A stretch of 64,000 bases of DNA, taken from the IMG/VR virus record IMGVR_UViG_3300044540_000246; one strand, written 5' to 3'. Within the stretch, counting starts at the first letter, position 1. Every line of letters starts with the position of its first letter. The notes beneath the pieces were generated by a model. The model made no database searches. It saw only the letters and a program-made list of their open reading frames with translations, and was not told the origin of the DNA. The stretch is from an uncultured virus (IMG/VR IMGVR_UViG_3300044540_000246). Taxonomy: Duplodnaviria > Heunggongvirae > Uroviricota > Caudoviricetes. Shown in pieces: positions 19,198 to 41,474 of the stretch. Made by a program: the position numbers and the translations under genes.

Positions 19198-19265
19198 CGG
19201 GTTCCTTCCATTCATTGGCCGTACAGTCCCCCTGTCACGCCCTACCAGGGCCGCAATGATGGCAG

Positions 19266-20225
19266 TCACGGGGTGGTGGGGATGAACGGTGGCATCCGTT
19301 CCGGCCAGACCCGGTCGTCTGGGGTCAGCGGCTCCAGCATGTACTGGATCCCGGTGCGCTCCTCCTCGAGGCCGAGCTTGATGCGCGCCTCCCGCAGGTC
19401 GTACGCGCGGATCACGACCGGCGGGTACGCCTGGTGCGCCGCCCTCATCGCATCCCGCGCCGGTCGCTCGCCCGGCCGGAAACCTTTCTCGCGTGTCTCC
19501 GCCATCGCTTCACGCTGCAACCGCCGCATGTCCGGGGCGCCGACCGGCGCGAACTCGAAGACGAACTCGCTGCGCGTCAGCTCCCGGGCGCAGCGCCCGA
19601 ACAGGTGGAGGAACTCCTCGAACGTCAGGATGCCCTGGATCGGGTCCCCGAAGTCGACCGCCCCGCTCCAATGTGGGTTGCCGACCGGGTTGCGGCCCTC
19701 GGCCGTCAATGACAGCGACGCCTGACCGTTTCGGTAGCGGAAATAGAACGGGTGGCCGTGCCATGACCCTTCGGCCTGGAACGGAACCGCGCCGCCGTAC
19801 TCCTGGAGCACCGCGCCCGGGAACAGTGCGGCGAACCTGGCTGAGTCATACATGGAGCGCACGTCACGGATCGCGCCCCGCAGCGCCCATACCTCAACCC
19901 CGCTGTCGACGCGGCCGTTGAGGTCGAACGGATTGTGGATCTCGTCCCCGGGACGCACATCGAACGTGGCCGACGGTTCAACGGTCGCAACGGCGACGGC
20001 GAGCAGCAGCTCGGCTCCGTCGCCGCGCGGTACCGCCCAGCCCTCGATGTTCCAACGGCCGTCACCGGGGCGAGCCCGAACCGCCACTCCCGCATTCTCC
20101 GAGACGAGCTCAACGCAGCCGTCGACGGCCCGAACAACCACCGTGCTGGCGCCATCCCACGCACGCACGATCTCGTCTGGGTCGTACGACCACCCTGACC
20201 GTGGCGACTGCGCTGCTGCTGACAT
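19266..20225 (-). CDS. Hypothetical protein within RNA-repair cluster
   Basis: About 320-aa ORF between PNK and ligase; contains PFQAEG...FYFRYR segment. Confidence 0.7.
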   Translation of the reverse strand: MSAAAQSPRSGWSYDPDEIVRAWDGASTVVVRAVDGCVELVSENAGVAVRARPGDGRWNIEGWAVPRGDGAELLLAVAVATVEPSATFDVRPGDEIHNPFDLNGRVDSGVEVWALRGAIRDVRSMYDSARFAALFPGAVLQEYGGAVPFQAEGSWHGHPFYFRYRNGQASLSLTAEGRNPVGNPHWSGAVDFGDPIQGILTFEEFLHLFGRCARELTRSEFVFEFAPVGAPDMRRLQREAMAETREKGFRPGERPARDAMRAAHQAYPPVVIRAYDLREARIKLGLEEERTGIQYMLEPLTPDDRVWPERMPPFIPTTP

Positions 20226-22911: not shown

Positions 22912-24594
22912 ATGGCTCACCGCGACCGCACCCTGCGCCACGCCCGCACCGGCCGTTTCGCCGGATCTCTGCCCGGCCCGGCGCCCACAGCACCGCCCGC
23001 CGCGCCGGTCCCCGCGCCTGCAAGCTTCGCCGCCATGATGCGGCTCAACCTCGACGCAGCCGCGCAGCACCTGGGCGTCGCAGATCGAACTCCGGCTGTC
23101 GACTGCCCCAACTGCGGCACCTCCCGCACTCGAGGCCAAGCCCACCGCTGCGCCGCGCTCGGCCTTGTCCCCGTCGACGGGCCGACCGGGAAGGTCCTCG
23201 CCGCGATTCGGCTGGCCGGCGGCCGCCCCCTCTTGGTCGGCGGCGCCGTCCGTGACGCGTTGCACGCACGACTCGGTGGGACCGCCCAGGCTGCGCCGAA
23301 GGACGTCGACATCGAAGTGTTCGACCTGCCATCGTTCGACCCCCTCATGCCCGCCCTGACCCGCCTGGCGCGCGTCGACGAAGCCGGACGCTCGTGGGGC
23401 GTCCTCAAGCTCGCCGTCGACGGGACCGACTTCGACATCTCCATGCCCCGCACCGAGACCAAGGACGGCGACGGGCACCGCGGGTTCGCTGTCTTTACTG
23501 ACCCGCACCTCGGCGAGGTCGAAGCAGCGGGCCGCCGCGACTTCACCATCAACGCGATGGGCTACGACCCCGAGACCGGCGAGCTCGTCGACCCGTACGG
23601 CGGCGCAGCGGACCTCGCCGCCGGCGCCCTGCGGCACACGACCAAACGGTTCGCCGAAGACCCGCTCCGCGTCCTGCGCGCCGCGATGTTCGCCGCCCGC
23701 TACAACCTCACCCTCGACCCCGCCACCGTCGAACTCGCCGCGTCGATCAGCGACCAGTTTGACACCATCGCAAAGGAACGCGTGTGGGGCGAACTGGTCA
23801 AACTGACCGGGAAAGGGACCCGCATCTCCGCCGGCCTCGACGTCCTCCACGCCACCGACTGGGAGCGGCACTTCCCCGAGCTCGCCGCCTGCCGCGACGT
23901 CCCCCAAGATCCAGCCCATCACGCCGAAGGGCCCGTCCACATCCATCTGGGCCTCGCCGCCGACGCTGCCGCCGCGATCGCCGAACGGGACGGCCTAGCT
24001 GAACAGGACAGGCACCTGCTCGTCCTCGCCGCCCTATGCCACGACTTCGGTAAAGCAGCGCCCGGCGGCACCCAGATCCACTACCGCGACAACGGGACGG
24101 TCGAGAAGATCACCAGTCGCGGTCACGCCCAGCTCGGCCGCGACGCCACCCGAGCGTTCCTGGTCCGCCTCGGCGCCCCTGAGAGGACAGTCCGCCGAGT
24201 CGTCGCGCTCGTCGGCGAGCACATGTCCCACGCCTCCGCAGACGGCACACCGACACCGACCGCTGTTCGTCGCCTCGCCCGCCGCCTCGACGCTGCCGAC
24301 CTGACCCTCCACGACTGGGCCCGCCTCGTCGAAGCGGACACATCAGGCCGGGGGCCGTCATCGAAGGCATCGCCCGCCGACGCGTGGCTCGCCGTCGCCG
24401 CACGCCTGCCCGCCGGCGGCCGCGCCGCTGCACCGCTACTGCGCGGGGAGGACCTTATCGCTGCCGGCCTGACGCCGGGCCGCTCATTCTCCAGCATCAT
24501 CTCCGCGTCGATCGCAGCACAGGACGCGGGCGAGTTCACCGACGCGGCAGGCGCCCGCGCCTGGCTTGCGCGGCATCTGGTAGGCAACGCATAA
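22912..24594 (+). CDS. cca: CCA-adding tRNA nucleotidyltransferase with HD domain
   Basis: VGGAVRD, KDVDIE, RRDFTINA, EDPLRVLR, CHDFGK. Confidence 0.92.
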   Translation: MAHRDRTLRHARTGRFAGSLPGPAPTAPPAAPVPAPASFAAMMRLNLDAAAQHLGVADRTPAVDCPNCGTSRTRGQAHRCAALGLVPVDGPTGKVLAAIRLAGGRPLLVGGAVRDALHARLGGTAQAAPKDVDIEVFDLPSFDPLMPALTRLARVDEAGRSWGVLKLAVDGTDFDISMPRTETKDGDGHRGFAVFTDPHLGEVEAAGRRDFTINAMGYDPETGELVDPYGGAADLAAGALRHTTKRFAEDPLRVLRAAMFAARYNLTLDPATVELAASISDQFDTIAKERVWGELVKLTGKGTRISAGLDVLHATDWERHFPELAACRDVPQDPAHHAEGPVHIHLGLAADAAAAIAERDGLAEQDRHLLVLAALCHDFGKAAPGGTQIHYRDNGTVEKITSRGHAQLGRDATRAFLVRLGAPERTVRRVVALVGEHMSHASADGTPTPTAVRRLARRLDAADLTLHDWARLVEADTSGRGPSSKASPADAWLAVAARLPAGGRAAAPLLRGEDLIAAGLTPGRSFSSIISASIAAQDAGEFTDAAGARAWLARHLVGNA

Positions 24595-30123: not shown

Positions 30124-30420
30124 CGTACAGGGATGCTACACTCGGATAACCACGGGCCACTCCGACAACAAGCCGATAGGATGACCCAGCACCGCAACCC
30201 GCGGCGCACAGACTTCACGGAAGGAGGCAGCACCATGAGGACGAACTCCGTCACCATCACCGCAAGCGTCACCGCCTGCGCGATGAACGCTGCCGCCACC
30301 CAAACCCAGAACCTGGGATCGAAGCGCTTCCTCGGCACCTCCGGGCTCACGACCTGACCTGACCATCACACCAGGACAGTTCCAAGGGCCCCCGCCGACA
30401 GGCGACCGGGGCCCTTTCTC
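30124..30420 (+). promoter_or_regulatory. tRNA block 1 leader: promoter, 40-aa leader ORF (30235-30357), terminator hairpin (30384-30420)
   Basis: CGTACAGG-N5-TACACT; AAGGAGG RBS; AAGGGCCCC...GGGGCCCTTTCT; homologous to 39926-40205. Confidence 0.7.
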
Positions 30421-30678
30421 ATAGGTCCACCCAGTAGCACCCCTCAGACTTCACGGCCCTCCCGCGGGAGGCGCACTAGAACCACTTGACAACTCCACAG
30501 CGGACATGACGAATACGGGCCGACCCCACCGCGCCAACGGTGACCACGGGCAGGTCCGGCAACACACGTGGCACGCCAGACTCGACTCCCCACCATGGGG
30601 GGCGGGCGAGGGCGTTGCTCAACCGCACCCGCGGACGAGCACACCGAGACCTCGAGCGGACGGCCACTCTCGAGGCAC

Positions 30679-30747
30679 GCCTTCCGCGCCGGCGCGCGTC
30701 GGTCACTTGTAATGACTGGCTGCTCGGATCGACACCGAGGGGAGGCT
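30679..30747 (+). tRNA. tRNA-Thr(TGT)-like, degenerate D-arm and T-loop
   Basis: GCCTTCC/GGGAGGC acceptor; GGTCA-CTTGTAA-TGACT; CTCGG-ATCGACA-CCGAG. Confidence 0.55.
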
Positions 30748-30885
30748 CGACCCATAGACGCGTCTCGGTCCGAGCGCGATCGAACACGGGCAACTCTCAA
30801 AGCAGCAACCCGCCCACTACATCACCACCGGGAACAACGGGACAAGCAACGCGGAACCGCGAACCCGCGCATCGGACCAACACAT

Positions 30886-30961
30886 TGCCAGGTGCTCTGT
30901 TGGCAGGGGCAACCGGATTCTGACTCCGGGCACGACGCAGGTTCGATTCCTGCCCTGGCAG
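30886..30961 (+). tRNA. tRNA-Gln(CTG)
   Basis: CCGGA-TTCTGAC-TCCGG; GGTTCGATTCC. Confidence 0.85.
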
Positions 30962-31010
30962 CGGACCGGCGACGAGGTAAAGGCGCAGCCCCTCGTCGCC
31001 GCATCCCCAC

Positions 31011-31075
31011 AGCTCGCAGCGGATCGCACGGGACTCATAACCCCTACGCGCCAGGTTCGAATCCTGGGCGAGCTA
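31011..31075 (+). tRNA. tRNA-Met(CAT)-like, D-arm largely absent
   Basis: AGCTCGC/GCGAGCT acceptor; CTCATAA loop; CCAGG-TTCGAAT-CCTGG. Confidence 0.55.
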
Positions 31076-31076
31076 C

Positions 31077-31149
31077 GGTCGCATAGCTCAGTTGGTAGAG
31101 CATCTCGTTTACACCGAGCAGGTCGGGCGTTCAAGTCGTCCTGCGACCA
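31077..31149 (+). tRNA. tRNA-Val(TAC)
   Basis: Canonical cloverleaf, loop TTTACAC. Confidence 0.9.
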
Positions 31150-31160
31150 CTTCCGAGCGC

Positions 31161-31352
31161 CTGCAGCGCACAGGAGATAGAGGTTCGATTCCTCTCCACG
31201 TCAGCACGCCAACACCCCGCCTGAGAGGTAGCGCCCGGTTCAACTCCGGAACAGGCTCCGGAACCAGCAGCTGACGAGGTAGCTCAATGGCCCCAAGACC
31301 GCCCCCTGCCAGGGCGGACCCGCCCGCAGCGCGAGCGTACGCGAAGCTGCAG
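31161..31352 (+). ncRNA. Y-RNA (YrlA)-like circularly permuted tRNA mimic with insertions
   Basis: Order: closing stem, T-arm, closed acceptor-like helix, D-arm, closing stem with CGAAG bulge. Confidence 0.6.
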
Positions 31353-31388
31353 CCGAGAGGGATGGCAGGCACTCCCTCTCGGCAACTT

Positions 31389-31464
31389 GCCGCAATAGCT
31401 CAGTCGGTAGAGCACTTCCTTGGTAAGGAAGAGGCCTCGGGTTCAAGTCCCGATTGTGGCTCCA
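31389..31464 (+). tRNA. tRNA-Thr(GGT)
   Basis: Canonical, loop TTGGTAA, encoded CCA. Confidence 0.95.
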
Positions 31465-31465
31465 C

Positions 31466-31541
31466 GCTCGTGTGGCTCAGCTGGCAGAGCACCGCCTCGA
31501 CACGGCGGAGGCCCCTGGTTCAAGTCCAGGCGCGAGCACCA
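31466..31541 (+). tRNA. tRNA-Val(GAC)
   Basis: Canonical, loop TCGACAC, CCA. Confidence 0.92.
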
Positions 31542-31629
31542 CCCCGCCGACAGCGCCTCCGCCCACAGGAGACGCAGACAGCGGGACACCGCCGCCCGCA
31601 ACGCCGCCCAAGGGGTTGCGGGCGGCCCT

Positions 31630-31705
31630 GGGGATGTAGCTCAGCTGGTAGAGCGCGCGCTTCGCATGCGTGAGGTCAGGGGTTCGACTCCCCTCGTTTC
31701 CACCA
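31630..31705 (+). tRNA. tRNA-Ala(CGC)
   Basis: Canonical, loop TTCGCAT, G3:U70, CCA. Confidence 0.95.
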
Positions 31706-31739
31706 CCCGCCCGAGCGCAAGCCCGGACGGCGACCCAAC

Positions 31740-31812
31740 GGGGGCATAGCTCAGCCGGTAGAGCACCTGCATGGCATGCAGGGGGTCAAGGGTTCGAGTC
31801 CCTTTGCTTCCA
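31740..31812 (+). tRNA. tRNA-Ala(GGC)
   Basis: Canonical, loop ATGGCAT. Confidence 0.93.
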
Positions 31813-31909
31813 CTCCTTTGACCGGGCACGCGCCGCGACACGTAATCGCGGTCCAGGCGGCCAGGAGCGCAAACGGAAAGCCCCACCGTCCGAAGGGAAC
31901 GGGGCGCAT

Positions 31910-32000
31910 TCCGGTGTTGGTGCTGCTGGCAGGCACCACCTGACTGTTAATCAGGCGGGCGAGAGCCCCTCCGCAGGTTCGATTCCTGCCGCCGGAGCCA
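31910..32000 (+). tRNA. tRNA-Asn(GTT) with long variable arm
   Basis: CCTGA-CTGTTAA-TCAGG; variable hairpin GGGC-GAGA-GCCC; GCCA end. Confidence 0.85.
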
Positions 32001-32027
32001 CACCTCCGTTCGCCTCGGCGAACACAC

Positions 32028-32102
32028 GCCCGTCAAGCTCAGCGTTGGTGGAGCGCCCGGTTGAAGCCCGGGAGGTTGCCGGTTCGACCCCGGCGGTGGG
32101 CA
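32028..32102 (+). tRNA. tRNA-Phe(GAA)
   Basis: CCCGG-TTGAAGC-CCGGG. Confidence 0.85.
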
Positions 32103-32103
32103 C

Positions 32104-32190
32104 GGCTCTCTGGCGGAACAGGCAGACGCGCCGGCTTCAAATACCGGTGACCGTGAGGTCGTGCGGGTTCGACCCCCGCGAGAGCTACCA
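32104..32190 (+). tRNA. tRNA-Leu(CAA)
   Basis: Class II cloverleaf, loop TTCAAAT, CCA. Confidence 0.9.
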
Positions 32191-32215
32191 GTACCCTTGG
32201 CACGGGCGCGCATGA

Positions 32216-32301
32216 TCTCGAGTTGGTGCTGCTGGCAGGCACCACCTGACTGTTAATCAGGAGCCGCAAGGCCTTCGGAGGTTCGATTCCTCCCTCGAGA
32301 G
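32216..32301 (+). tRNA. tRNA-Asn(GTT) with long variable arm, second copy
   Basis: D and anticodon arms identical to 31910 copy; variable hairpin GCC-GCAA-GGC. Confidence 0.85.
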
Positions 32302-32354
32302 CGACCCGAGCTCCGGCTCGGACCCGCGGACCTCAGCGCGCACCCTGAGGGTAT

Positions 32355-32438
32355 GGCCCCTTGGCGGAACGGTAGACGCGCTGGTCTTAGGAACCAGTAT
32401 CGCAAGGTGTGCGGGTTCGAATCCCGTGGGGGCTACCA
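32355..32438 (+). tRNA. tRNA-Leu(TAG)
   Basis: CTGGT-CTTAGGA-ACCAG, CCA. Confidence 0.93.
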
Positions 32439-32511
32439 CCGTGCCGGCTCGCTGGCGCGAAGGATCGCAAGGTCCGACCGTTCGACGGCCCCGGCCGGCC
32501 GTCGAGCTTCC

Positions 32512-32583
32512 GCCTTCGTGGTCCAAGGGACACGACGCCGGTCTACGGAACCGGAGATTCAGGTTCGATTCCTGACGAGGGCG
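32512..32583 (+). tRNA. tRNA-Arg(ACG)
   Basis: CCGGT-CTACGGA-ACCGG. Confidence 0.9.
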
Positions 32584-32590
32584 CGCATTC

Positions 32591-32663
32591 GTCTCGTTAG
32601 CTCAATGGACAGAGCGCCACCCTCCGGAGGTGGAGGCTGCAGGTTCGACCCCTGCACGGGACA
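32591..32663 (+). tRNA. tRNA-Arg(CCG)
   Basis: CCACC-CTCCGGA-GGTGG. Confidence 0.92.
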
Positions 32664-32680
32664 CGCACGCCGCACCACGA

Positions 32681-32755
32681 TCCCCGCTGGTGTATTCGGC
32701 AGCACCCCTGCCTTTGGAGCAGGTAGACGAGGTTCGAACCCTCGACGGGGAGCCA
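32681..32755 (+). tRNA. tRNA-Gln(TTG)
   Basis: CCTGC-CTTTGGA-GCAGG, CCA. Confidence 0.9.
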
Positions 32756-32812
32756 CCCCACAGACCATCACGGCTCAGGCGCCACACGCCGGCCAGAACA
32801 GGAAGACTCACC

Positions 32813-33046
32813 ATGACCACCACCCAACCCCAGACGCGCGGCCGCGGCCGCCGCAACCACAGCTCGAAGCCCACCCAGGACGTCATCGTCGTCGGCGGTC
32901 AGAAGTTCAAGCTCGCCGACCTGCCTCTCGTCGCGTTCATCAAGACGTGCGGGCACCCCGGCCGCGACTTCGCCGTCCAGGCCGGCGACCTCGTCTTCTG
33001 CGACACCTGTCGCGAGCACACGAACGTCGCCCGCATCACCGCCTGA
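32813..33046 (+). CDS. Small putative Zn-binding protein inside tRNA array
   Basis: 77 aa, basic N-terminus, CGH...CDTC; AGGAAG RBS. Confidence 0.7.
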   Translation: MTTTQPQTRGRGRRNHSSKPTQDVIVVGGQKFKLADLPLVAFIKTCGHPGRDFAVQAGDLVFCDTCREHTNVARITA

Positions 33047-33089
33047 CCCGCCAGCGCTCACGCCAGGACGGGTCAGGCGCACCCATTCT

Positions 33090-33163
33090 GGCGTACTGGC
33101 CGAGCGGTCAGGCAGCGGCCTGCAAAGCCGTCCAGTCCGGTTCGACTCCGGAGTGCGCCTCCA
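33090..33163 (+). tRNA. tRNA-Cys(GCA)
   Basis: GCGGC-CTGCAAA-GCCGT, TCCA. Confidence 0.93.
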
Positions 33164-33164
33164 C

Positions 33165-33240
33165 GCGGATGCTGGGCGACTGGCCGCCCACCTGCCTTCC
33201 AAGCAGGCCCTAGCGGGTTCGAGTCCCGTCATCCGCTCCA
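33165..33240 (+). tRNA. tRNA-Gly(TCC)
   Basis: CCTGC-CTTCCAA-GCAGG, TCCA. Confidence 0.9.
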
Positions 33241-33331
33241 CCCCCGCACCACGCGCAGACCTCCGCGGAACGAGGTTAGGACGGCAACCTGCGCCCCCGC
33301 TCGACAGGGGAACCATGCGAACAGCCCCCAC

Positions 33332-33404
33332 CCCTCCGTAGCTCAGTTGGCAGAGCAGCCGGCTCTTACCCGGCGGGCCGCAGGTTCAAGTCCTGCCGGA
33401 GGGA
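33332..33404 (+). tRNA. tRNA-Lys(CTT)
   Basis: GCCGG-CTCTTAC-CCGGC. Confidence 0.9.
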
Positions 33405-33445
33405 CCGCCGTCGCGGGCGAGTGCGCTCGCCGATGAAAGACGATC

Positions 33446-33940
33446 ATGAAGACGTGCTCGCGATGCCGGCAGGACAAACCGCATTCGGACTTCCACCGAC
33501 ACTCCAGAATGCGAGATGGGCTGCAGCGCCAATGTAAGCAGTGCCGAGTGGAGATTAACCACGCGCACTACCTCAAGACGCGCGAAGCTCACCAAGCCGC
33601 GCGCCGCAGAGCCTCCCTGAAGGTTCGCGGCCGGAACAGGGCCATCGTCATGGAAGCCGCTCGAGATGGATGCGTGGAGTGCGGGGAGAAGGACTTCCGC
33701 GTCCTCGAGTTCGACCACGTGAGAGGCGTCAAGACGGCAGACATCTCGAAGATGATCAGCCACTCGGAGGAGCGACTCAGGGCGGAGCTTACCTTGTGCG
33801 AAGTACGATGCGCCAACTGCCACCGCCGTAAGACCGCCGAGAGAGCCGGCTGGTACAGGAACTGGACCGTAGGGGTCGAGGCGTTCGTTCCCTCCGATGG
33901 CAGTTCCACGCGATCACCCAACGTAGACGAGACGGGCTGA
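33446..33940 (+). CDS. HNH endonuclease with N-terminal Zn ribbon
   Basis: MKTCSRC...CKQC; CVECGE...LEFDHV...CANCHR. Confidence 0.9.
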   Translation: MKTCSRCRQDKPHSDFHRHSRMRDGLQRQCKQCRVEINHAHYLKTREAHQAARRRASLKVRGRNRAIVMEAARDGCVECGEKDFRVLEFDHVRGVKTADISKMISHSEERLRAELTLCEVRCANCHRRKTAERAGWYRNWTVGVEAFVPSDGSSTRSPNVDETG

Positions 33941-34010
33941 GAGCGGTCGATAGCTAGTAAGCCAGTTCTCCAGGCTGGCGGCGAGAGTTCGAATCTCGTC
34001 TTGTTGTTCC
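33941..34010 (+). pseudogene. Degenerate tRNA remnant
   Basis: Anticodon-like hairpin CCAGT-TCTCCAG-GCTGG and GAGTTCGAATCTC T-arm; no intact acceptor stem. Confidence 0.45.
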
Positions 34011-34039
34011 ACGCCATCTAGGGCCCCTGGGCGGCGCAT

Positions 34040-34115
34040 GCGGTCGTAGCTCAACTGGTAGAGCGTCGCCTTGCCATGGCGAAGGTTGCGGGTTCGAGTC
34101 CCGTCGACCGCTCCA
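34040..34115 (+). tRNA. tRNA-Gly(GCC)
   Basis: Canonical, loop TTGCCAT, CCA. Confidence 0.95.
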
Positions 34116-34174
34116 CGCCCTCCGCGGCCAAGCGGAGCGGTGACCGGTGCGGGATGCCCCTCGCGCCGCAACAT

Positions 34175-34247
34175 GCGGGCGTAGCTCAGCTGGCAGAGCG
34201 CGACCTTCCCAAGGTCGATGTCGCGAGTTCGACTCTCGTCGCCCGCT
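34175..34247 (+). tRNA. tRNA-Gly(CCC)
   Basis: Canonical, loop TTCCCAA. Confidence 0.95.
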
Positions 34248-34421
34248 CGCCCCGTGGCAGGTATCCGAGCACCTCAAGACCTCGGGATGCGTCACCCCGG
34301 CAGTCACGGGGTCATCAGCGGTCTGATGTAGCCATTGGAGCAGCTCGCCGGGCGGAGTACCGGAAGGAGCGCAGTGAGCGGCCGAGCAGGAGAGAGGGAG
34401 CCGACCTCGAGACCTGCGCAT

Positions 34422-34495
34422 GCCTCGTTAGCTCAACTGGTAGAGCAGGGAACTCATAGTTCACGGGCTTCCGGGTTCAAATCCCGGGCGGGGTA
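34422..34495 (+). tRNA. tRNA-Met/Ile2(CAT)
   Basis: Loop CTCATAG; Met versus lysidine-Ile not resolved by eye. Confidence 0.85.
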
Positions 34496-34554
34496 CGACG
34501 CCGGCAGCAGGGAACAGTCGGAGCGCACGCTCAGGCTCCTGTTGGTGGCGGCAT

Positions 34555-34631
34555 GCCGGGATAGCTCAGCAGGCCAGAGCGTCCCACTCGTAATGGGAAG
34601 GCCGCCGGTTCGACTCCGGCTCTCGGCTCCA
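34555..34631 (+). tRNA. tRNA-Thr(CGT)
   Basis: TCCCA-CTCGTAA-TGGGA, CCA. Confidence 0.93.
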
Positions 34632-34728
34632 CCCGACGCGCACCCAGGGTGCTGCGTCGGCCACTCTGACCCCACCGTCCGGTCGGAGGTTTCACCACCG
34701 CACGCACCACCGCGGGAGGACGGCACAC

Positions 34729-34811
34729 GTCGATGTGGCGGAATGGCAGACGCGCCAGCTTGAGGTGCTGGTATCTGAAAGGGTGTGAGAGTTCAAATCT
34801 CTCCTTCGACA
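34729..34811 (+). tRNA. tRNA-Leu(GAG)
   Basis: CCAGC-TTGAGGT-GCTGG, class II. Confidence 0.92.
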
Positions 34812-34840
34812 CGTAACACGCTCCGGCCAACGCCGGTATC

Positions 34841-34913
34841 GCCTCCGTAGCTCAGCTGGCAGAGCAGCTGACTTTTAATCAGCGGGTCGCAGGTTCGAAA
34901 CCTGCCGGGGGCA
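34841..34913 (+). tRNA. tRNA-Lys(TTT)
   Basis: GCTGA-CTTTTAA-TCAGC. Confidence 0.95.
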
Positions 34914-34961
34914 CCCCGAACCGATATAGCAACAGCCACGCGCACGGAAGAGAGCTAGTAG

Positions 34962-35126
34962 ATGACATCAGCCAGCCAATACGCCAGCGCTGCGCGGCCG
35001 CGGAAAGTAGCACGATTGACGTTGGCTGATGTTGCGCAGATCGTGTTGATGTTCGCTTTCGACCTCGCCGTCGCCGCCGGATTGTTTGCCGGCCTGGCTG
35101 TCATCGTCGCTACGGTTCTCCCGTGA
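34962..35126 (+). CDS. Small membrane protein inside tRNA array
   Basis: 54-aa ORF with hydrophobic C-half; GTGA overlap with next ORF. Confidence 0.5.
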   Translation: MTSASQYASAARPRKVARLTLADVAQIVLMFAFDLAVAAGLFAGLAVIVATVLP

Positions 35127-35326
35127 CCGGTCCTCGCATCGACGGCCGCACCAAGCACCTCATCTACTGCGAAGATTTCCACGATGCGGCGCGCGTAGCC
35201 GGCGCGATGGACCTGCACCTGAGCGCCTGGTGCTGGATCACCGACGTGAACGCACCCGCCGACCCGGTCGTGTTCACCCGCAACCCGAACCCGACAGCTG
35301 CGGCAGACACCACACTTCCCGCGTAG
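35123..35326 (+). CDS. Small hypothetical protein inside tRNA array
   Basis: 67-aa ORF coupled to the previous one. Confidence 0.55.
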   Translation: MTGPRIDGRTKHLIYCEDFHDAARVAGAMDLHLSAWCWITDVNAPADPVVFTRNPNPTAAADTTLPA

Positions 35327-35344
35327 CACCGCGCGGGACCCCTT

Positions 35345-35430
35345 GGAGAGTGAACCGGGCAGGGTCCCGGGACCGCCTCGAAAGCGGATCGAGCCGGCGA
35401 CGGTTTGGGTTTCGAGTACCTCGCTCTCCG
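35345..35430 (+). tRNA. tRNA-Ser(CGA), 8/4 type
   Basis: 8-bp acceptor GGAGAGTG/CGCTCTCC, 4-bp T-stem, long variable arm. Confidence 0.88.
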
Positions 35431-35437
35431 CGCACCG

Positions 35438-35526
35438 GGAGGATGAACCGACCAGGCGGTCGGGGCCGCCTTGAAAGCGGATCGAGCCGGCAACGGCTTG
35501 GGTTTCGAGTACTCCATCCTCCGCCA
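35438..35526 (+). tRNA. tRNA-Ser(TGA), 8/4 type
   Basis: GGAGGATG/CATCCTCC; loop CTTGAAA; GCCA. Confidence 0.88.
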
Positions 35527-35546
35527 CACCACAGCATCATCCCTTT

Positions 35547-35636
35547 GGAGAGTGAACCGGCCGGGGCGCCGGGCACGCCTGGAAAGCGTTGCGGACCCCA
35601 CGCGGGTCTGGGATTCGAGCTCCTCGCTCTCCGCCA
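35547..35636 (+). tRNA. tRNA-Ser(GGA), 8/4 type
   Basis: Loop CTGGAAA; GCCA. Confidence 0.88.
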
Positions 35637-35651
35637 CAGCATCATCCCTTT

Positions 35652-35738
35652 GGAGAGTGAACCGGCCAGGGTGCCGGCGCTCGTTGCTAGCGAGATGGGT
35701 CCTCCGGGACTGGGTTTCGACTACTCCGCTCTCCACCA
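35652..35738 (+). tRNA. tRNA-Ser(GCT), 8/4 type
   Basis: Loop TTGCTAG; ACCA end. Confidence 0.85.
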
Positions 35739-35836
35739 TGCACGTAGGGCAGGTAGCACGTTCGACTCGTGCGCGGGGGCGGTCCCCTAGACTGGCGGCA
35801 GCCGACCCTGGGAGTTCGACTCTCCAACGTGCAGCA
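35739..35836 (+). ncRNA. tRNA-like RNA with two T-arms and no canonical anticodon arm
   Basis: TGCACGT/ACGTGCA closing stem; GCACG-TTCGACT-CGTGC and GGAG-TTCGACT-CTCC. Confidence 0.55.
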
Positions 35837-35850
35837 GAACCTGGCTCAGC

Positions 35851-36046
35851 TCCCGTAGTGCCAGACGGGACGAGAGTCGCGCGGGCGCGAAGGCACTCCG
35901 CCGCGGTGCGATGCAGCACACCGACCAGCTGCACTGAGGTCGGCGGTCACCTTCCCGAGGCCGGGGAGATGACGCAGGAACACGGCAGTACCCGGCACGA
36001 GTGATGCATCTTCGGACTGCTCAACCCGGCAACCCCGACCGGCCTC
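35851..36046 (+). ncRNA. Candidate structured RNA with three tandem H-type pseudoknots
   Basis: Three stem-loops whose loops have perfect 6-nt downstream complements. Confidence 0.55.
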
Positions 36047-36050
36047 ACTT

Positions 36051-36122
36051 GCCTCGTTAGCTCAGCGGAAGAGCGTCCGGCTTCTAACCGGCGGGCCGCT
36101 GGTTCGACTCCAGCACGGGGCG
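36051..36122 (+). tRNA. tRNA-Arg(TCT)
   Basis: Loop CTTCTAA. Confidence 0.9.
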
Positions 36123-36157
36123 CTGACCGCCAAACGCCATGGGGCGGGCAACAGAAT

Positions 36158-36237
36158 GCGAGCGTATACCCTCACGCTGATAACGTGTCGAAAGGTTAGC
36201 TGGTGGCACGTGAGTTCGAATCTCACCGCTCGCACCA
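36158..36237 (+). tRNA. tRNA-Ile(GAT)-like, rearranged (no 5' D-arm, long segment after anticodon arm)
   Basis: GCGAGCG/CGCTCGC-ACCA; CACG-CTGATAA-CGTG; GTGAG-TTCGAAT-CTCAC. Confidence 0.7.
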
Positions 36238-36361
36238 CTCCGCAGATCCAGCAGTCAGACCACAGCCCCAGCGGAAGGGCAGCATGCAGTGGAGGTCTGA
36301 CCCCTGCGGTGGGCAGGGTCGCGCCAGGGCTCGGCGACAATCGGGCTCCCCACCACCTCAC

Positions 36362-36429
36362 GGGCTGCGCGCAGGGCGCGGGCCTCCCTTGCACGGAGGC
36401 CTTGAAGGGTTCGAGTCCCTTGCGGTCCA
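36362..36429 (+). tRNA. tRNA-Ala(TGC), short D-arm
   Basis: G3:U70 acceptor GGGCTGC/GCGGTCC; CCTCC-CTTGCAC-GGAGG. Confidence 0.7.
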
Positions 36430-36433
36430 CTCC

Positions 36434-36506
36434 GCCCGTGTAGCTCAGCGGAAGAGCTCCCGCCTCCTACGCGGGGAACGCCCCCGTTCGAACCGGGGCA
36501 CGGGCT
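36434..36506 (+). tRNA. tRNA-Arg(CCT)
   Basis: CCCGC-CTCCTAC-GCGGG. Confidence 0.88.
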
Positions 36507-36588
36507 CGAAAGTCGTCATGTCCGCTGCGGAGAAGTCGCCCTCCAGGTCTCGATGAATGCCGGTGCGAACAGGTATCCTGCACGGACG

Positions 36589-37575
36589 ATGATCCGTCAC
36601 CTGCCCACCCTTGCCGCACTGCTCGTCGCAGCCGTGCTGGCTTCTGCCGTGCCCGCGAACGCCGCCGGCGACAGCGGCAGCCGAGAGGGCGATGGCCGTG
36701 AGGGTCGCCCCAGCCCGCTCCTGCCCGGGTGGGCGCTGGACAGCATCGACGGGGCACTCGACGGCCGCTACGTGCTCGACCCGGCTTCGGCCGGGCAGGG
36801 CGTCGCCGTGTACGTCATCGACACCGGCGTCGACGCCAGCAGCACACAGCTCGCCAGACGGGTCTCGGGAGGGGTCTCGCTGCTTCCCGGCTCGGTCGGG
36901 ACGGGCGACTGTAACGGGCACGGCACCCGTGTCGCGCAGGCGATCGCAGGAACTACCGTCGGTGTAGCCCCGGCCGCGACCATCATCCCGGTCCGTGCGT
37001 TCGACTGCGCCGGCCGCGGCGACGGCGCCGGCATCGCGCCCGCCCTGAACTGGATCGTCGACCATCACCCTCCCGGTGAGCCCGGCGTGATCAACGTGTC
37101 CGCCGGCGGGTGGGCCGACCCGACCACCGACGCCGCTGCGCTCGCGGCGGTCCGCGCGGGGCTGGTCGTCGTCGTATCCGCCGGGAACACCGGCGGGGAC
37201 GCGTGCGACCGATCCCCTGCTCGCGTCCCCGCAGTCATTACTGTCGCCGCCGCTACGCCAGCAGGCGCTTACGCCGACTCCGCGACCGGCCGGTGCGTCG
37301 ACCTGTGGGCGCCGGGCGCGTCAGTCATCACCACGACCGACGCCGGCTACCGGCTTAGCTCCGGAACCAGTCTCGCGGCTGCATTCGTTGCAGGCGCGGC
37401 AGCTCGCTACCTGTCGGCGGACCCGGCGGCCTCCCCTGCCGACGTCGGCCGATGGCTGACCGACCAGGCGACGGCAGCGAGCGGGCCGACGGTCCCCGGC
37501 ACCGTCACTGCGACGCTGCAGCTCCCGGCAACGATCGCGCCCGTCCGCCACGACGTGCCCCGCGCTCGAATGTAG
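36589..37575 (+). CDS. Secreted S8 subtilisin-like serine protease
   Basis: Signal peptide; VIDTGV, NGHGT, SAGN, SGTSLA triad motifs. Confidence 0.92.
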   Translation: MIRHLPTLAALLVAAVLASAVPANAAGDSGSREGDGREGRPSPLLPGWALDSIDGALDGRYVLDPASAGQGVAVYVIDTGVDASSTQLARRVSGGVSLLPGSVGTGDCNGHGTRVAQAIAGTTVGVAPAATIIPVRAFDCAGRGDGAGIAPALNWIVDHHPPGEPGVINVSAGGWADPTTDAAALAAVRAGLVVVVSAGNTGGDACDRSPARVPAVITVAAATPAGAYADSATGRCVDLWAPGASVITTTDAGYRLSSGTSLAAAFVAGAAARYLSADPAASPADVGRWLTDQATAASGPTVPGTVTATLQLPATIAPVRHDVPRARM

Positions 37576-37703
37576 CGGCGCCTGCCGAGCGCGTCACGGG
37601 CATGCGACGCAGTGGCGGCGGCACAACTTCCGTCAGCCGATGTCGGCTCTGAGCAATAAAGTGAACCTGTACGCGCTTCGCGCGTCGGAACAGAAGAAGG
37701 ACC

Positions 37704-38585
37704 ATGAACGACACGCGCACCGCACTCCTCCCCACTGAGGCTATGCCGCGTCGTGTCGCGTTCGCCGGCGACTGGCACGGCAACACCATGTGGGCGCTCC
37801 ACTGCCTGCGCGAGCTCGCCGCCGCCGGCATTGACCGCATCTACCATGTCGGCGACTTCGGCCTGTGGCCCGGCGAGTCCGGCGCAGCATTCCTCCGCAA
37901 GGTCGACGCGCACGCCACCCGCTACGGCATCACCATCGACGTCACCCTCGGCAACCACGACGACTACGACCGGTTCGCGCAGCTTCGCGCCGACGAGGAC
38001 GGCTGGCTGCGAACCAAGCACACCCCCGCACTCCGGTTCGCTCCCCGCGGCCACACATGGGAGGACCACGGAGTCCGGTTCGCGTCCCTCGGCGGCGCCG
38101 GCAGCATCGACCGGAACCTCCGCACCGCCGGCCGCGACTGGTGGCCCGACGAAGCGATCGGTCGCGACGACGTCCGGACCCTCGCCGCCAACGTGACTGC
38201 GCGAGGCTGGGACCGAGTCGACGTCCTCATCACCCACGAAGCACCCGCCGGCCTGACCCGCCGCGGGTTCGCCGTCATGCCCCGCTGGGCAACCCCCGAC
38301 GTTCAGCAGTACTGCTGGGAGCAACGAGTCCGACTCCGCCACGCAACCGACCTGGTGATGCCGCACACCCTCGTCCACGGCCACTGGCACGAATGGCACC
38401 ACGACGAGCTCCACGGTGTCGGCCCCGGCGACTCAGGCGCAGAGTACGTCACCGACGTGTTCTCCCTGTCCGCCGACGGCGACGTCCGCAACCTCATCAC
38501 CGCTGAGCTCATCCCGTACGTCGGCGTGACCGACCCGCAGCTGCCGCTCATCTCGAGCGGCCGCGCCGCCCGCCGAACCGCATGA
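37704..38585 (+). CDS. Calcineurin-like metallophosphoesterase
   Basis: GDWHG, VGDFG, GNHD, THEAP, HGHWH. Confidence 0.92.
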   Translation: MNDTRTALLPTEAMPRRVAFAGDWHGNTMWALHCLRELAAAGIDRIYHVGDFGLWPGESGAAFLRKVDAHATRYGITIDVTLGNHDDYDRFAQLRADEDGWLRTKHTPALRFAPRGHTWEDHGVRFASLGGAGSIDRNLRTAGRDWWPDEAIGRDDVRTLAANVTARGWDRVDVLITHEAPAGLTRRGFAVMPRWATPDVQQYCWEQRVRLRHATDLVMPHTLVHGHWHEWHHDELHGVGPGDSGAEYVTDVFSLSADGDVRNLITAELIPYVGVTDPQLPLISSGRAARRTA

Positions 38586-39085
38586 CGACCGGCCAAACGG
38601 GCAGCGCCGACCGCCTCATGGACCTCGTCTGCGGCAGCGACCCCGCCGACCTTGCCGTCGTCGTCCAACGCGGTGACCTGCGGACCGAGCACCTCGAAGC
38701 CCTCGCCGAACGCATCGTGTCTACCTGGGCCACGGTCGACGCCACCGAAGGCGCCTACATCTGGCTCGCCGGCAGCCGGCTCACCCAACGCGGGAGCCTA
38801 CCCCCAGCCGCCATCGAGACCCTCGCCCGGCACCCCGACCCGAGCATCCGCGCCCGCATCGCCGACCGACCCGACCTGCCGGGAGCGCTCGCTCGCCAGC
38901 TCGCAGGCGACGACGACCCGAAGGTCGCCCGCTACATCGCCAACAACGCCGCCGTCGCCGAAGAGATCCGCATCCTCGCCGCCCTAAACGCAGCCAGCGG
39001 CGACAGACCCCGAGCCGGGACGCCATCAGGGGCACCTGCAACGCCGAGGCGCGCGCACCCACAGCCGACCGGAAATCAACCATGA
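38582..39085 (+). CDS. LRV/HEAT-like repeat protein
   Basis: LARHPDPSIRARIA, IANNAAVAEEIRILAAL. Confidence 0.7.
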   Translation: MTTGQTGSADRLMDLVCGSDPADLAVVVQRGDLRTEHLEALAERIVSTWATVDATEGAYIWLAGSRLTQRGSLPPAAIETLARHPDPSIRARIADRPDLPGALARQLAGDDDPKVARYIANNAAVAEEIRILAALNAASGDRPRAGTPSGAPATPRRAHPQPTGNQP

Positions 39086-39201
39086 CCATCAACCATGACC
39101 CGGATGACGCCCGCAACCTCATAGCCGCCGTACTCATCCCCTACGTCGGCGTGACCAACCCGCGGCCGCCCCTCCTCGCCCCTCCCGCGAAAGATCGATA
39201 G
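39082..39201 (+). pseudogene. Duplicated C-terminal fragment of the metallophosphoesterase gene
   Basis: DDARNLIAAVLIPYVGVTNPRPPL matches GDVRNLITAELIPYVGVTDPQLPL (about 38478-38550). Confidence 0.65.
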
Positions 39202-39203
39202 GC

Positions 39204-39659
39204 ATGCTCCGCCGCGCGCTCGACGCCCTACTCGCCCGCCCGCCCGCAGAGCAGGAGGGGGACTGGCTGTCGCCCCTCATCCGAACGGCGCCCTTCGCCG
39301 ACCTGGTTGAATGCGCCAACCGGGACGACCTCGAGCCCCACCACTACATCCTGCTCGCCGAGCGTTTCGCGACCCAACGAGCCGAAAGCGAAACGGAGAC
39401 CTACGAGGGCTGGTACTTCGCGATGCTGCTCCTCGACGACCCGAAGACCCCCGAAGAAGCGCTCCGCACCATCGCCAAGCGCGCCGACAGCACCCTCCTG
39501 CTCATGCTCGCCGGACGGAACGACATCCCCGACGACCTCGCCCTCGAGCTCGCCGCGCACCCCCTCTACGCCATCCCGGCCGCGATCGTCGCGAACCCGG
39601 CAACCAGCGACGACGCACGAACCATCGCCACCCTCAACCTCGGCGCCAACCAAACGTAA
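39204..39659 (+). CDS. LRV/HEAT-like repeat protein, paralog of 38582-39085
   Basis: DLEPHH..LAER; IVANPATSDDARTIATL. Confidence 0.7.
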   Translation: MLRRALDALLARPPAEQEGDWLSPLIRTAPFADLVECANRDDLEPHHYILLAERFATQRAESETETYEGWYFAMLLLDDPKTPEEALRTIAKRADSTLLLMLAGRNDIPDDLALELAAHPLYAIPAAIVANPATSDDARTIATLNLGANQT

Positions 39660-39925
39660 GAGCACATGAGGGCAGGTCCCCAGCAGAAAGCCACTCGGGG
39701 CACCACAGCGTTCGCCGACCGCATCGAGACGGAAGCGCGCGCCAACGACGCCGGCAAGAACTCCAGCCAGATGCGCCGCGCGCCGAACATGCGAAGCTGA
39801 TACCGGACATGACCGAGCGCCTCACCGAAGCGACCCCGGCCGCCACCAACCCAGCCCTCGGACGTGCCAACTCAACCCAGCTGCGCACGTCCGACGACAC
39901 GGCCTAAACTCGCAGGAACACAAGC

Positions 39926-40205
39926 CGTACAGGTGTGCTATACTCGTACCAGAGGCGAATGTGACGGGCCACCCGCAACAGACGCCGATAGAGCACCAGC
40001 ACATCAGCACCCCGAACCGCAGGAAAGGAGAACCGAGATGACCGAACGCTACGCCCACGTCATCCCGGCCTTCGTCGATCCTGCGCACGAGTGGCCCTAC
40101 TCGGCCGTCCCGAACGGGAGCTGCATGTGAAAGCCTGACCACCAGGCTCACCATGAAGCCGCCTCGCACGGGACCACACCCCGAGCAGGCGGCTTCAGTC
40201 GTTTC
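39926..40205 (+). promoter_or_regulatory. tRNA block 2 leader: promoter, 30-aa leader ORF (40038-40130), terminator hairpin (40154-40197)
   Basis: CGTACAGG-N5-TATACT; AAAGGAG RBS; TGAAGCCGCCT...AGGCGGCTTCA-GTCGTTT. Confidence 0.7.
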
Positions 40206-40226
40206 CGGACCACAACACAACAACGA

Positions 40227-40311
40227 ATGGGCGTCGCGTAGCGGCTATCGCAGCGGTCTCCAAAACCGCCGACCTAGGTCACCGTGGGTTCGAGTCCCAC
40301 CGCCCATGCCA
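40227..40311 (+). tRNA. tRNA-Trp(CCA) with long variable arm
   Basis: GCGGT-CTCCAAA-ACCGC; variable GACC-TA-GGTC; GCCA. Confidence 0.85.
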
Positions 40312-40336
40312 CACAACTAAACACGCACCACCACCC

Positions 40337-40413
40337 GCCGTGAGCGCTGGGACGCAAGGGAGGCTGTAACCCTCTCCCCACTGGGTAGACGAGTTCGATT
40401 CTCGGGCACGGCA
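40337..40413 (+). tRNA. tRNA-Tyr(GTA), short atypical D-arm
   Basis: GGAGG-CTGTAAC-CCTCT; variable arm; GAGTTCGATTCTC. Confidence 0.65.
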
Positions 40414-40434
40414 CGCACCACAACACAACACCGA

Positions 40435-40509
40435 CTGGCTGTAGCTCAGAGGAAGAGCGCCCACCTTGGGAGTGGGAGGCCCCCGACTCGAACTCGGGCA
40501 GCCGGACCA
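40435..40509 (+). tRNA. tRNA-Pro(TGG)
   Basis: CCCAC-CTTGGGA-GTGGG; atypical T-loop CTCGAAC. Confidence 0.82.
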
Positions 40510-40538
40510 CCCCCGAATGGGACATAACTCAACAACGA

Positions 40539-40612
40539 CTGGCTGTAGCTCAGCAGGAAGAGCGCTAGCTCGGGGAGCTAGAGGCCCGGCGGTTCGAGCC
40601 CGCCCAGCCAGA
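40539..40612 (+). tRNA. tRNA-Pro(GGG)
   Basis: CTAGC-TCGGGGA-GCTAG. Confidence 0.88.
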
Positions 40613-40645
40613 CGCACCACCAACAACTCAACACGCACCACATGA

Positions 40646-40721
40646 CCGGGTGTGGGGAAGCTTGGCCATCCCGCCTGCCTCGGACGCAGGAGTATCGCAG
40701 GTTCAAATCCTGCCATCCGGA
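40646..40721 (+). tRNA. tRNA-Pro(CGG)
   Basis: CCTGC-CTCGGAC-GCAGG. Confidence 0.9.
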
Positions 40722-40762
40722 CTCAACAACTCAACAATGAATAGCGCGCAACGCGCACGCAT

Positions 40763-40840
40763 GGTGGCCGTAGCTCAGATGGTTAGAGCGTCCGACTGTG
40801 ACTCGGAAGGTCGCGAGTTCGAGCCTCGTCGGTCACCCCA
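40763..40840 (+). tRNA. tRNA-His(GTG)
   Basis: G-1:C73, loop CTGTGAC, CCA. Confidence 0.95.
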
Positions 40841-40841
40841 T

Positions 40842-40914
40842 GCCCCCATCGTTTAGAGGCCAAGGACACCGCCCTTTCACGGCGGCGGCGCCGGTTCGAA
40901 TCCGGCTGGGGGTA
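40842..40914 (+). tRNA. tRNA-Glu(TTC)
   Basis: CCGCC-CTTTCAC-GGCGG. Confidence 0.93.
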
Positions 40915-40939
40915 CGAACAACTCAATAGTGAATGTCTT

Positions 40940-41013
40940 GGTCCCGTGGAGCAGTTGGAGTGCTCGCCACCCTGTCACGGTGGAGGTCGCCGGTTCGAGT
41001 CCGGTCGGGATCG
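40940..41013 (+). tRNA. tRNA-Asp(GTC)
   Basis: CCACC-CTGTCAC-GGTGG. Confidence 0.95.
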
Positions 41014-41044
41014 CAAGGCTCTTGGCAGGCGTGCTGGGAGCTCA

Positions 41045-41228
41045 GAGCAGAGACGCAAGGACGGTGGTCGCGCGACCGTCCGGCTCCTCCGGGGGTCGTG
41101 GTGTAAGGCGCTGGTCGAGGACGACGCATCCTCGGCCTGGCGGCACGGCGCCTCTGTTCGAAACCAAATTCTCAGGTAGGTGTGAGTAGAGATGCATTCC
41201 TGAGAAAGCGGGCGGTGGCTACTCACAC
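41045..41228 (+). ncRNA. Candidate structured RNA: multibranch domain plus strong pseudoknot
   Basis: GAGCAGAGACGC/GCGCCTCTGTTC closing helix; TTCTCAGG/CCTGAGAA crossed with GTGTGAGTAG/CTACTCACAC. Confidence 0.6.
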
Positions 41229-41242
41229 GCGGTTCGCGCTTT

Positions 41243-41313
41243 GGTTCGTTAGCTCAGCGGTAGAGCGCTCCCCCGTCAAGGGAGAGGTCGCGGGTTCGAG
41301 CCCCGTACGGATC
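41243..41313 (+). tRNA. tRNA-Asp(GTC), second divergent copy (C at position 33)
   Basis: CTCCC-CCGTCAA-GGGAG. Confidence 0.85.
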
Positions 41314-41397
41314 GCGCTCCATCCCGGCTGCGGATAGTGGGCGTGTCTCAGTTTCGAGGCGCGCCAGAAGGAGGGATGACTCTCGCGCAGCCGCTTT

Positions 41398-41474
41398 GCC
41401 CCCTTGGTCTAGTGGTCTACGACGCCCGGTTCTCAGCCGGGAGGTCACCGGTTCAAATCCGGTAGGGGGTACCA
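41398..41474 (+). tRNA. tRNA-Glu(CTC)
   Basis: CCCGG-TTCTCAG-CCGGG, CCA. Confidence 0.92.

Follow-up and report, generated by a model that had tools for sequence, protein, structure and literature searches.

An isoleucine tRNA gene with exchanged D-stem and anticodon-arm blocks on a contig classed as viral, very likely encoding a tRNA whose backbone topology is new

To our knowledge, the order acceptor, D, anticodon, variable, T is treated as fixed for tRNAs with a full elbow, and the exceptions we know of lack arms, have altered stem lengths or are permuted at the gene level alone. Circularly permuted tRNA genes occur in red algae and archaea, their products maturing to normal cloverleaves; in the bacterial Y RNA YrlA, the tRNA-like domain begins with the T-arm and does not serve as a decoding tRNA. 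Non-canonical phage and metagenome tRNAs missed by standard tools have been reported as allo-tRNAs or irregular tRNAs (Mukai et al., PMC5389517); those in the available part of that paper differ in acceptor/T ratio (8/4, 9/3) or have an extra E-loop, and their D-arm stays 5' of the anticodon arm. D-armless mitochondrial tRNAs, such as mammalian mt-tRNA-Ser(AGY) and nematode mt-tRNAs, have a short acceptor-anticodon connector (PMC7609411, available part).

The gene described here, a tRNA-Ile(GAU) gene of 80 nt, lies in the window, that is, the whole stretch of DNA analysed, which makes up the first 64 kb of a linear IMG/VR virus record (124,169 nt; 68% GC; completeness estimate, 77%). With canonical bacterial and phage tRNA-Ile(GAU) and tRNA-Arg (RF00005) it shares a 7-bp acceptor with discriminator and CCA, a 5-bp T-stem with a TTCRANY loop, a 7-nt anticodon loop, U8, A14, R15/Y48, G18, G19, the major identity elements (PMC9976931, available part) and location in a tRNA array. 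Unlike them, it has no D hairpin between acceptor and anticodon arms, which are joined by a 7-nt connector only; the D-stem strands are reversed around the anticodon arm, the D-loop would form a junction strand of a three-way junction, and a U27.U43 mismatch marks subfamily 1. The window copy has neither the 8- or 9-bp acceptor with a 4- or 3-bp T-stem nor the long variable arm of allo-tRNAs, its ratio being 7/5. Whereas the D-armless mitochondrial tRNAs lose the D-arm, the family to which this gene belongs keeps all the elements: they lie 3' of the anticodon arm, where D-stem pairing and D-loop contacts are preserved, and still covary with the T-loop. Permuted genes and YrlA also present tRNA modules in altered order, but here the ends are normal, with the acceptor strands terminal and in normal order (no T-arm and acceptor 3' strand ahead of the 5' half), and two internal blocks are exchanged.

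A full-text literature search, whose coverage left subscription journals mostly and bioRxiv supplements wholly outside, gave no description of such a topology, and none was found in the available parts of PMC12803027 and PMC9897764. Four motifs of subfamily 1 were absent from the supplement text of PMC5389517 in a term search of its available part. The family was not found in part of the supplements of PMC10690425, and may be an unnamed candidate in the remaining three files; its absence from print is not proven.

Anatomy and setting of the gene

The earlier note on this DNA had described the acceptor stem, T-arm and ACCA end as perfect, and had pointed to only seven nucleotides between acceptor and anticodon arm and to a long segment after the anticodon arm with a GGT able to pair with the upstream ACC and a D-loop-like stretch, all of which were found as described (Table 1). 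The D-loop-like T-A-G-C-T-G-G-T (36197-36204) directly follows the GGT. The acceptor stem is 99.3% paired across 63 relatives, and the connector begins with T-A in 238/238 genes, the T being required by the filter used to collect them and partly fixed by the search patterns. Since the outer pair of the anticodon stem is U.U, this stem has 4 bp, compared with 5 bp in subfamily 2, and the loop itself is a standard 7-nt one with U33 and R37. The mismatch is T/T in 158/158 subfamily-1 genes, its 3' T being set by the search patterns and its 5' T by the subfamily filter.

In the numbering used here, the connector is U8, A and 22-26, and the 3' segment runs 44, 45, linker, 10-20, linker and 48. Connector positions 22-26 would correspond to what is normally the D-stem 3' strand, and the last A of the linker may take the place of A9. 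Sequence and covariation show that, in this numbering, block 22-46 (D-stem 3' strand and anticodon arm) precedes block 10-20 (D-stem 5' strand and D-loop). With the block order swapped, a 3-bp D-helix would enclose the anticodon arm, and the predicted secondary structure is therefore a three-way junction, not a cloverleaf.

Table 1. Features of the swapped tRNA gene and of its surroundings in the window (tRNA numbering inferred).
Feature	Position	Strand	Basis or remark
Whole gene, predicted tRNA-Ile(GAU), D-arm strands swapped, CCA encoded	36158..36237	+	Anatomy, Rfam alignment, family comparison
Acceptor stem 5' strand (positions 1-7)	36158..36164	+	7/7 Watson-Crick with 36227-36233
Connector, 7 nt (U8, A, then 22-26)	36165..36171	+	Register test
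ACC of the connector (positions 23-25)	36168-36170	+	Complementary to GGT 36194-36196
Anticodon arm: U27.U43 mismatch, 4-bp stem, 7-nt loop CTGATAA	36172..36188	+	28:42, 29:41, 30:40 and 31:39 covary
Anticodon G34-A35-U36 (GAT), followed by A37, A38	36179-36181	+	Sequence
21-nt segment after the anticodon arm	36189-36209	+	Contains the displaced D-arm elements
Linker: 44, 45, then three A	36189..36193	+	Role inferred
Displaced D-stem 5' strand (G10, G11, U12)	36194..36196	+	Pairs with 36168-36170
Displaced D-loop: U13, A14, G15 (36199), G18-G19 (36202-36203), U20 (36204), into C48 (36209)	36197..36209	+	Covariation 15/48, 18/55, 19/56, 20/35
T-arm, loop TTCGAAT	36210..36226	+	5/5 Watson-Crick, sequence pairing
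Acceptor 3' strand, discriminator A73 (36234), CCA (ACCA, 36234-36237)	36227..36237	+	Sequence
tRNA array, 35 ARAGORN calls and several uncalled non-canonical tRNAs	30886..41474	+	
T4-type RNA ligase, predicted	18073-19269	-	Pfam
PNKP-like enzyme, predicted	20249-21589	-	Pfam
CCA-adding-like enzyme (PolyA_pol+HD), predicted	22912-24594	+	Pfam

The gene was not called by ARAGORN and was also missed by Rfam at gathering settings; under laxer filters it scored 32.3 bits with RF00005, in an alignment with the D-arm deleted and the 3' segment inserted. The same stretch without differences was present in run X3, a near-identical sequence possibly not independent of the window. In the relatives from runs X4 and X5, no change falls within the gene among the differences listed, unlike the 5' spacer (36118-36156), which shows many substitutions and indels. 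A chance or assembly artefact is excluded. An overlapping open reading frame (36156-36443, 95 aa) was set aside because the relatives keep the RNA pairing. No sigma-70 promoter was found in 30300-36700. A long hairpin lies directly 3' of the gene (36240-36325, + strand) and is near-unchanged in X4 and X5 (2 listed changes); its GGAA-containing loop recalls SRP RNA, with no Rfam SRP match and a folding z that is not significant.

The gene had been noted as the sole Ile(GAT) of the array, and ARAGORN and a GAT-to-T-loop regular expression found no other on the entire contig of 124,169 nt. ATC is the main isoleucine codon here (741/850 in a rough set of long open reading frames). The ligase, PNKP-like and CCA-adding-like genes are predicted tRNA repair genes, whose tie to the swapped tRNA is one of context only. 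The window also encodes SecA, Clp ATPase and DnaE (Pfam), and gyrase, primase and a sigma factor are encoded beyond it; capsid, terminase and tail families had no match among 76 scanned ORFs, a subset of all ORFs. The contig is classed as virus, yet no virion gene was seen among those 76, and the element may be a large phage or a megaplasmid. The closest relatives of the CCA-adding-like enzyme are on Micrococcales megaplasmids (38-48% identity), and the host of the element is inferred to be actinobacterial. The megaplasmids closest by this enzyme were seen to carry 33-38 tRNAs; in five of them, picked from the closest matches, each array has a normal Ile(GAT), and no swapped Ile(GAT) was found in those five.

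Several other unusual tRNAs were noticed in the array, all on the + strand. Four Ser tRNAs (CGA, TGA, GGA and GCT, at approximately 35344-35430, 35439-35527, 35547-35638 and 35651-35738), missed by ARAGORN and Rfam, have by eye an 8-bp acceptor and a 4-bp T-stem, resembling the (8/4) tRNA-Ser in the available part of PMC5389517. A CAT-anticodon tRNA (31011-31081), also missed by ARAGORN, has a tiny D-arm (3 bp, 3-nt loop) and A73 followed by CGG, and is possibly Ile2 or initiator. In a tRNA-Ala(TGC) (36362-36430; z -2.2), a 4-bp D hairpin is stacked straight onto the acceptor and a D-loop with GG is missing, and two tRNA-Asn(GTT) (31910-32000 and 32216-32302; 91 and 87 nt) have long variable arms, unusual for Asn. 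A tRNA-like element (35739-35836) holds two T-loop-like hairpins within a 7-bp closing stem, with a weak tRNA-Sec score (20.7 bits). Another (31179-31296) presents a T-arm, then a 7-bp helix, then a D-loop-like motif, a module order which we take to resemble that of the YrlA domain; no Ro-like gene was found among the 76 scanned ORFs. Inside the array there is also a 164-aa ORF (33446-33940) with HNH-like Cys/His spacing by eye and no Pfam match.

Relatives in phages and mobile tRNA arrays

To collect relatives, viral, metagenome and genome contigs were scanned with sequence patterns, and the matches were passed through a structural filter. Before counting, matches that lacked the acceptor and T stems (54/282, 10/31, 87/169 and 2/64) and two non-tRNA rows (L133, L231) were removed; the filter then gave 243 matches in 683 loci, from which 5 mis-parsed normal tRNAs were removed, leaving 238. 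The family thus comprises at least 238 distinct genes in at least 300 loci, spans 24-68% GC and has only Ile or Arg anticodons. For the subfamily-1 patterns, some 380 viral and 740 metagenome stretches are estimated, chance matches included. The filter required a 7-nt anticodon loop, U33 and purine 37, and some patterns fixed the T-loop or GG, which inflates the common classes, so that the invariance of the subfamily-1 motif is partly built in. Among the matches listed, the pattern-biased anticodon counts were GAT 85, TAT 68, ACG 43, TCT 26, CAT 8, TCG 5, CCT 2 and CCG 1. C74 is present in 235/238 genes.

The carriers include cultured Streptomyces, Microbacterium and Rhodococcus phages; among Streptomyces phages, the query is covered to 80% or more by 77 records. 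In 166 of the 173 loci of at least 2.5 kb, other tRNAs were called by ARAGORN. One GTDB scan gave nine matches, seven of them real and all seven on metagenome-assembled contigs with tRNA clusters; the other two (L268, L270) were chance matches. No full-length match was found in PLSDB by blastn.

Three anticodon-blind scans, each covering 1-5/64 of the collection, retrieved 25 new genes, all of the Ile or Arg class, and no swapped tRNA for another amino acid; the restriction to Ile and Arg is sampled, not proven. The 121 loci with a TCAG-type D-loop held no swapped gene. Inspection by eye of the long Ile, Arg and Met calls of ARAGORN turned up no convincing intermediate in which a displaced D-loop accompanies a normal one. 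Two further kinds of phage tRNA-Ile were observed in these collections. Seven tRNA-Ile(TAT) genes (L168, L181, L346, L540, L646, L655, L681) combine a normal D-arm with a long hairpin in the variable region, the loop of which resembles a second Ile anticodon loop (CAGATTA or CAGATAA), and nine tRNA-Ile(GAT) genes (L134, L240, L315, L372, L403, L406, L415, L419, L435; 82-86 nt) have class II-like long variable regions.

That the gene is a decayed or scrambled tRNA pseudogene has only the slimmest chance of being right. Its U27.U43 mismatch would fit such a reading, as would the failure of annotation: none of the 238 swapped genes was called by ARAGORN when placed in neutral padding (0/238), and among the matches listed the gene is unannotated in 19/20 Streptomyces phage records, with the BE-cluster phage EGole (MK494112.1, 75265-75341) labelling it tRNA-Leu. 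Likewise, it is unannotated in Microbacterium phage A3Wally (MZ150783.1, near 93609-93688; an Arg member) and labelled 'tRNA-OTHER' in Rhodococcus phage Trina. Against decay, compensatory changes keep the stems across the whole GC range, the gene is without listed change in relatives whose spacer diverged, and two to four swapped genes that differ in anticodon are present together in some phages. The alignment of homologs, for which the earlier note had named lack of conservation as telling against its reading, shows the gene conserved, and the pseudogene reading is largely refuted by this conservation.

It is exceedingly unlikely that the gene is permuted at the DNA level only, with cutting and rejoining of its transcript, perhaps through the RNA ligase and kinase that the element encodes, restoring a normal cloverleaf. 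The presence of RNA ligase and PNKP-like genes within the window is in keeping with this, and genes of permuted order are found in red algae and archaea. Nevertheless, an exchange of two internal blocks takes three cuts and three joins, no splice-type motif was seen by eye, and linker lengths vary by subfamily (18-33 nt in the 3' segment), which a normal cloverleaf could not absorb.

Pairing and predicted elbow contacts of the displaced D-arm

Comparison of the relatives argues for the displaced D-helix (23-25/10-12). Across 66 core haplotypes, 185/198 cells pair (93%), and pairing falls to 16-37% when the helix is slid by 1-3 nt. Across the 88 genes outside the window's motif, 14 other 3-nt combinations take the place of ACC/GGT, most of them still pairing; 15 helix types are found with 39/45 cells Watson-Crick (shuffle control: mean 20.3, with 0/20,000 shuffles reaching the observed value), and of 28 registers tried on these genes, this one was the best (0.95; next, 0.71). 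Genes with the window's own scaffold likewise show replacements on both sides of the helix (L291, L375, L460).

The elbow was tested in 158 subfamily-1 genes aligned without reference to the T-loop, and the independence of changes on a weak 70-column tree built without the tested columns. At the Levitt pair 15/48, 105 genes have A-U, 34 have G-C and 19 have other combinations, R15-Y48 matching being broken in the latter 19/158; the link persists within the GAT class and within the TAT class, and the two positions change jointly in about 7/8 independent tree pairs (median p 0.016). At 18/55, G/U occurs in 154 genes and A/G in 4, and at 19/56, G-C in 155 and A-U in 3; every A18 gene has G55 and every A19 gene has U56, with no unmatched case, although on the weak tree only 2 independent pairs support each (p 0.5). 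A further A19/U56 was found in another subfamily (L055). An all-against-all APC-MI scan gave 48, 55, 56 and 35 as the best partners of 15, 18, 19 and 20, respectively, at each of three redundancy cut-offs, with 35/20 and 15/48 ranking level with or directly after the stem pairs. As far as these comparisons go, the displaced loop is shown to keep the 15/48, 18/55 and 19/56 partnerships. The proposal that an alternative fold rebuilds the elbow from the variable-region side is thus supported by covariation of the D-helix and of these three contacts.

The proposed model was not recovered by single-sequence folding: the lowest-energy fold is a different one (-25.9 vs -20.9 kcal/mol), the pair probabilities of the proposed D-helix and anticodon stem are only 0.01-0.02, and the folding z is -0.62. 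This would be expected of a D-armless tRNA with a long, loose variable loop, like animal mitochondrial tRNA-Ser(AGY), in which the likeness to a D-loop is incidental; the 7 nt before the anticodon arm allow no D-hairpin, and pairing of the D-helix is just 60-71% in a MAFFT alignment. However, the MAFFT value is low because that alignment mixes two registers offset by one column, and structure-anchored counts give 93-95% pairing with many two-sided changes. Together with the covariation of 15/48, 18/55 and 19/56 and the way A20 tracks the Arg class, this makes a D-armless tRNA highly improbable. The rewired fold, as judged from the family comparison, is highly likely to be correct, and the feature is very likely to be a tRNA whose backbone topology is new.

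Identity marks, proposed use and meaning

The marks that synthetases read point to a functional molecule. In bacteria, A20 is the main ArgRS determinant, and the Ile set comprises the anticodon, A37, A38 and A73, with C4-G69, U12-A23, C29-G41, G16, U20 and U21 as minor elements (PMC9976931, available part). Against Table 1 of that source, the window copy has all the major Ile determinants (G34-A35-U36, A37, A38, A73) and, among the minor ones, U12-A23 and U20, while C4-G69, C29-G41, G16 and U21 are absent; among the 98 subfamily-1 Ile genes, C4-G69 is found in 42 and C29-G41 in 40. A73 is present in 98/98 of these and in 161/161 Ile-class genes pooled. A20 occurs in 54/54 Arg genes vs 1/98 Ile genes of subfamily 1, and in 77/77 vs 2/161 pooled over subfamilies. 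On the weak tree this association amounts to 3 independent pairs (p 0.25) with 7 class changes; shared ancestry accounts for part of it, yet the position is one that ArgRS reads.

We propose that the gene encodes a working isoleucine tRNA of predicted L shape that is charged by the host IleRS and reads AUC and AUU, a reading which we consider likely as a whole; by part, charging is strongly to be expected and use in translation is likely. Positions 8/9, 21/22 and 45-48 lie close together in the tRNA core, so that the strands could be joined differently at this point with every helix left in place. The helices would then keep their usual places in space, with only the strand links crossing at those positions differing, and the D-helix would keep its orientation while enclosing the anticodon arm. 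The tRNA would be cut from the array transcript, charged and passed by EF-Tu to the ribosome. The swap may have arisen once, through internal duplication and deletion, and then spread among phage tRNA arrays with Ile/Arg switches at position 35 plus position 20; UAU to UCU is one step.

The weakest step of the proposal is the benefit, which could be that of a spare tRNA poorly recognised by host tRNA-cutting defences. Resistance to such defences fits a suggestion made for BE1 phage tRNA sets (PMC5764925, available part), and the neighbouring predicted repair genes would fit an anti-defence benefit as well. Among records carrying a swapped Ile(GAT), many of them partial, 8/28 also carry a normal Ile(GAT), vs 9/22 controls, so that no mutual exclusion of the two was found; these figures are compatible with a spare-tRNA benefit but do not show it.

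The same rewired fold, probably charged, might instead serve as a tRNA mimic or decoy for anticodon nucleases or tRNA-sensing proteins, with no decoding, and charged but non-translating irregular tRNAs are known (PMC5389517, available part). The frequent coexistence with a normal Ile(GAT) would suit a decoy, as would the confinement of the family to two amino acids and its occurrence only in mobile arrays, including the GTDB contigs. Against it, the isoacceptor range is a sensible one (GAT, TAT and CAT for Ile; ACG, TCG, CCG, TCT and CCT for Arg), the standard 7-nt loop, U33 and purine 37 (all three required by the filter) and the 7/5 acceptor branch are kept, and the gene is the sole Ile(GAT) in the window's array, 20/28 records having no normal copy called by ARAGORN. 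A decoy is, on balance, unlikely, and we retain the working isoleucine tRNA as the preferred reading.

For the family at large, we incline, with some reserve, to the view that phages use a second, three-way-junction tRNA topology whose kept surface is accepted by host synthetases, EF-Tu and ribosomes; it would be restricted to Ile and Arg, widespread, mostly invisible to annotation and kept by escaping host enzymes that read the core, and the cloverleaf would not be needed for a full elbow-bearing tRNA. The swapped family shows that the annotation of phage tRNA sets is incomplete, and its cultured carriers, which grow on harmless laboratory strains, make these tRNAs open to experiment. A family that swaps two internal blocks yet keeps the elbow contacts and synthetase marks would separate tRNA shape from strand order and, if the proposal is true, would make it possible to test directly which features modification enzymes, nucleases, EF-Tu and the ribosome recognise, and would also provide a new scaffold for engineered tRNAs.
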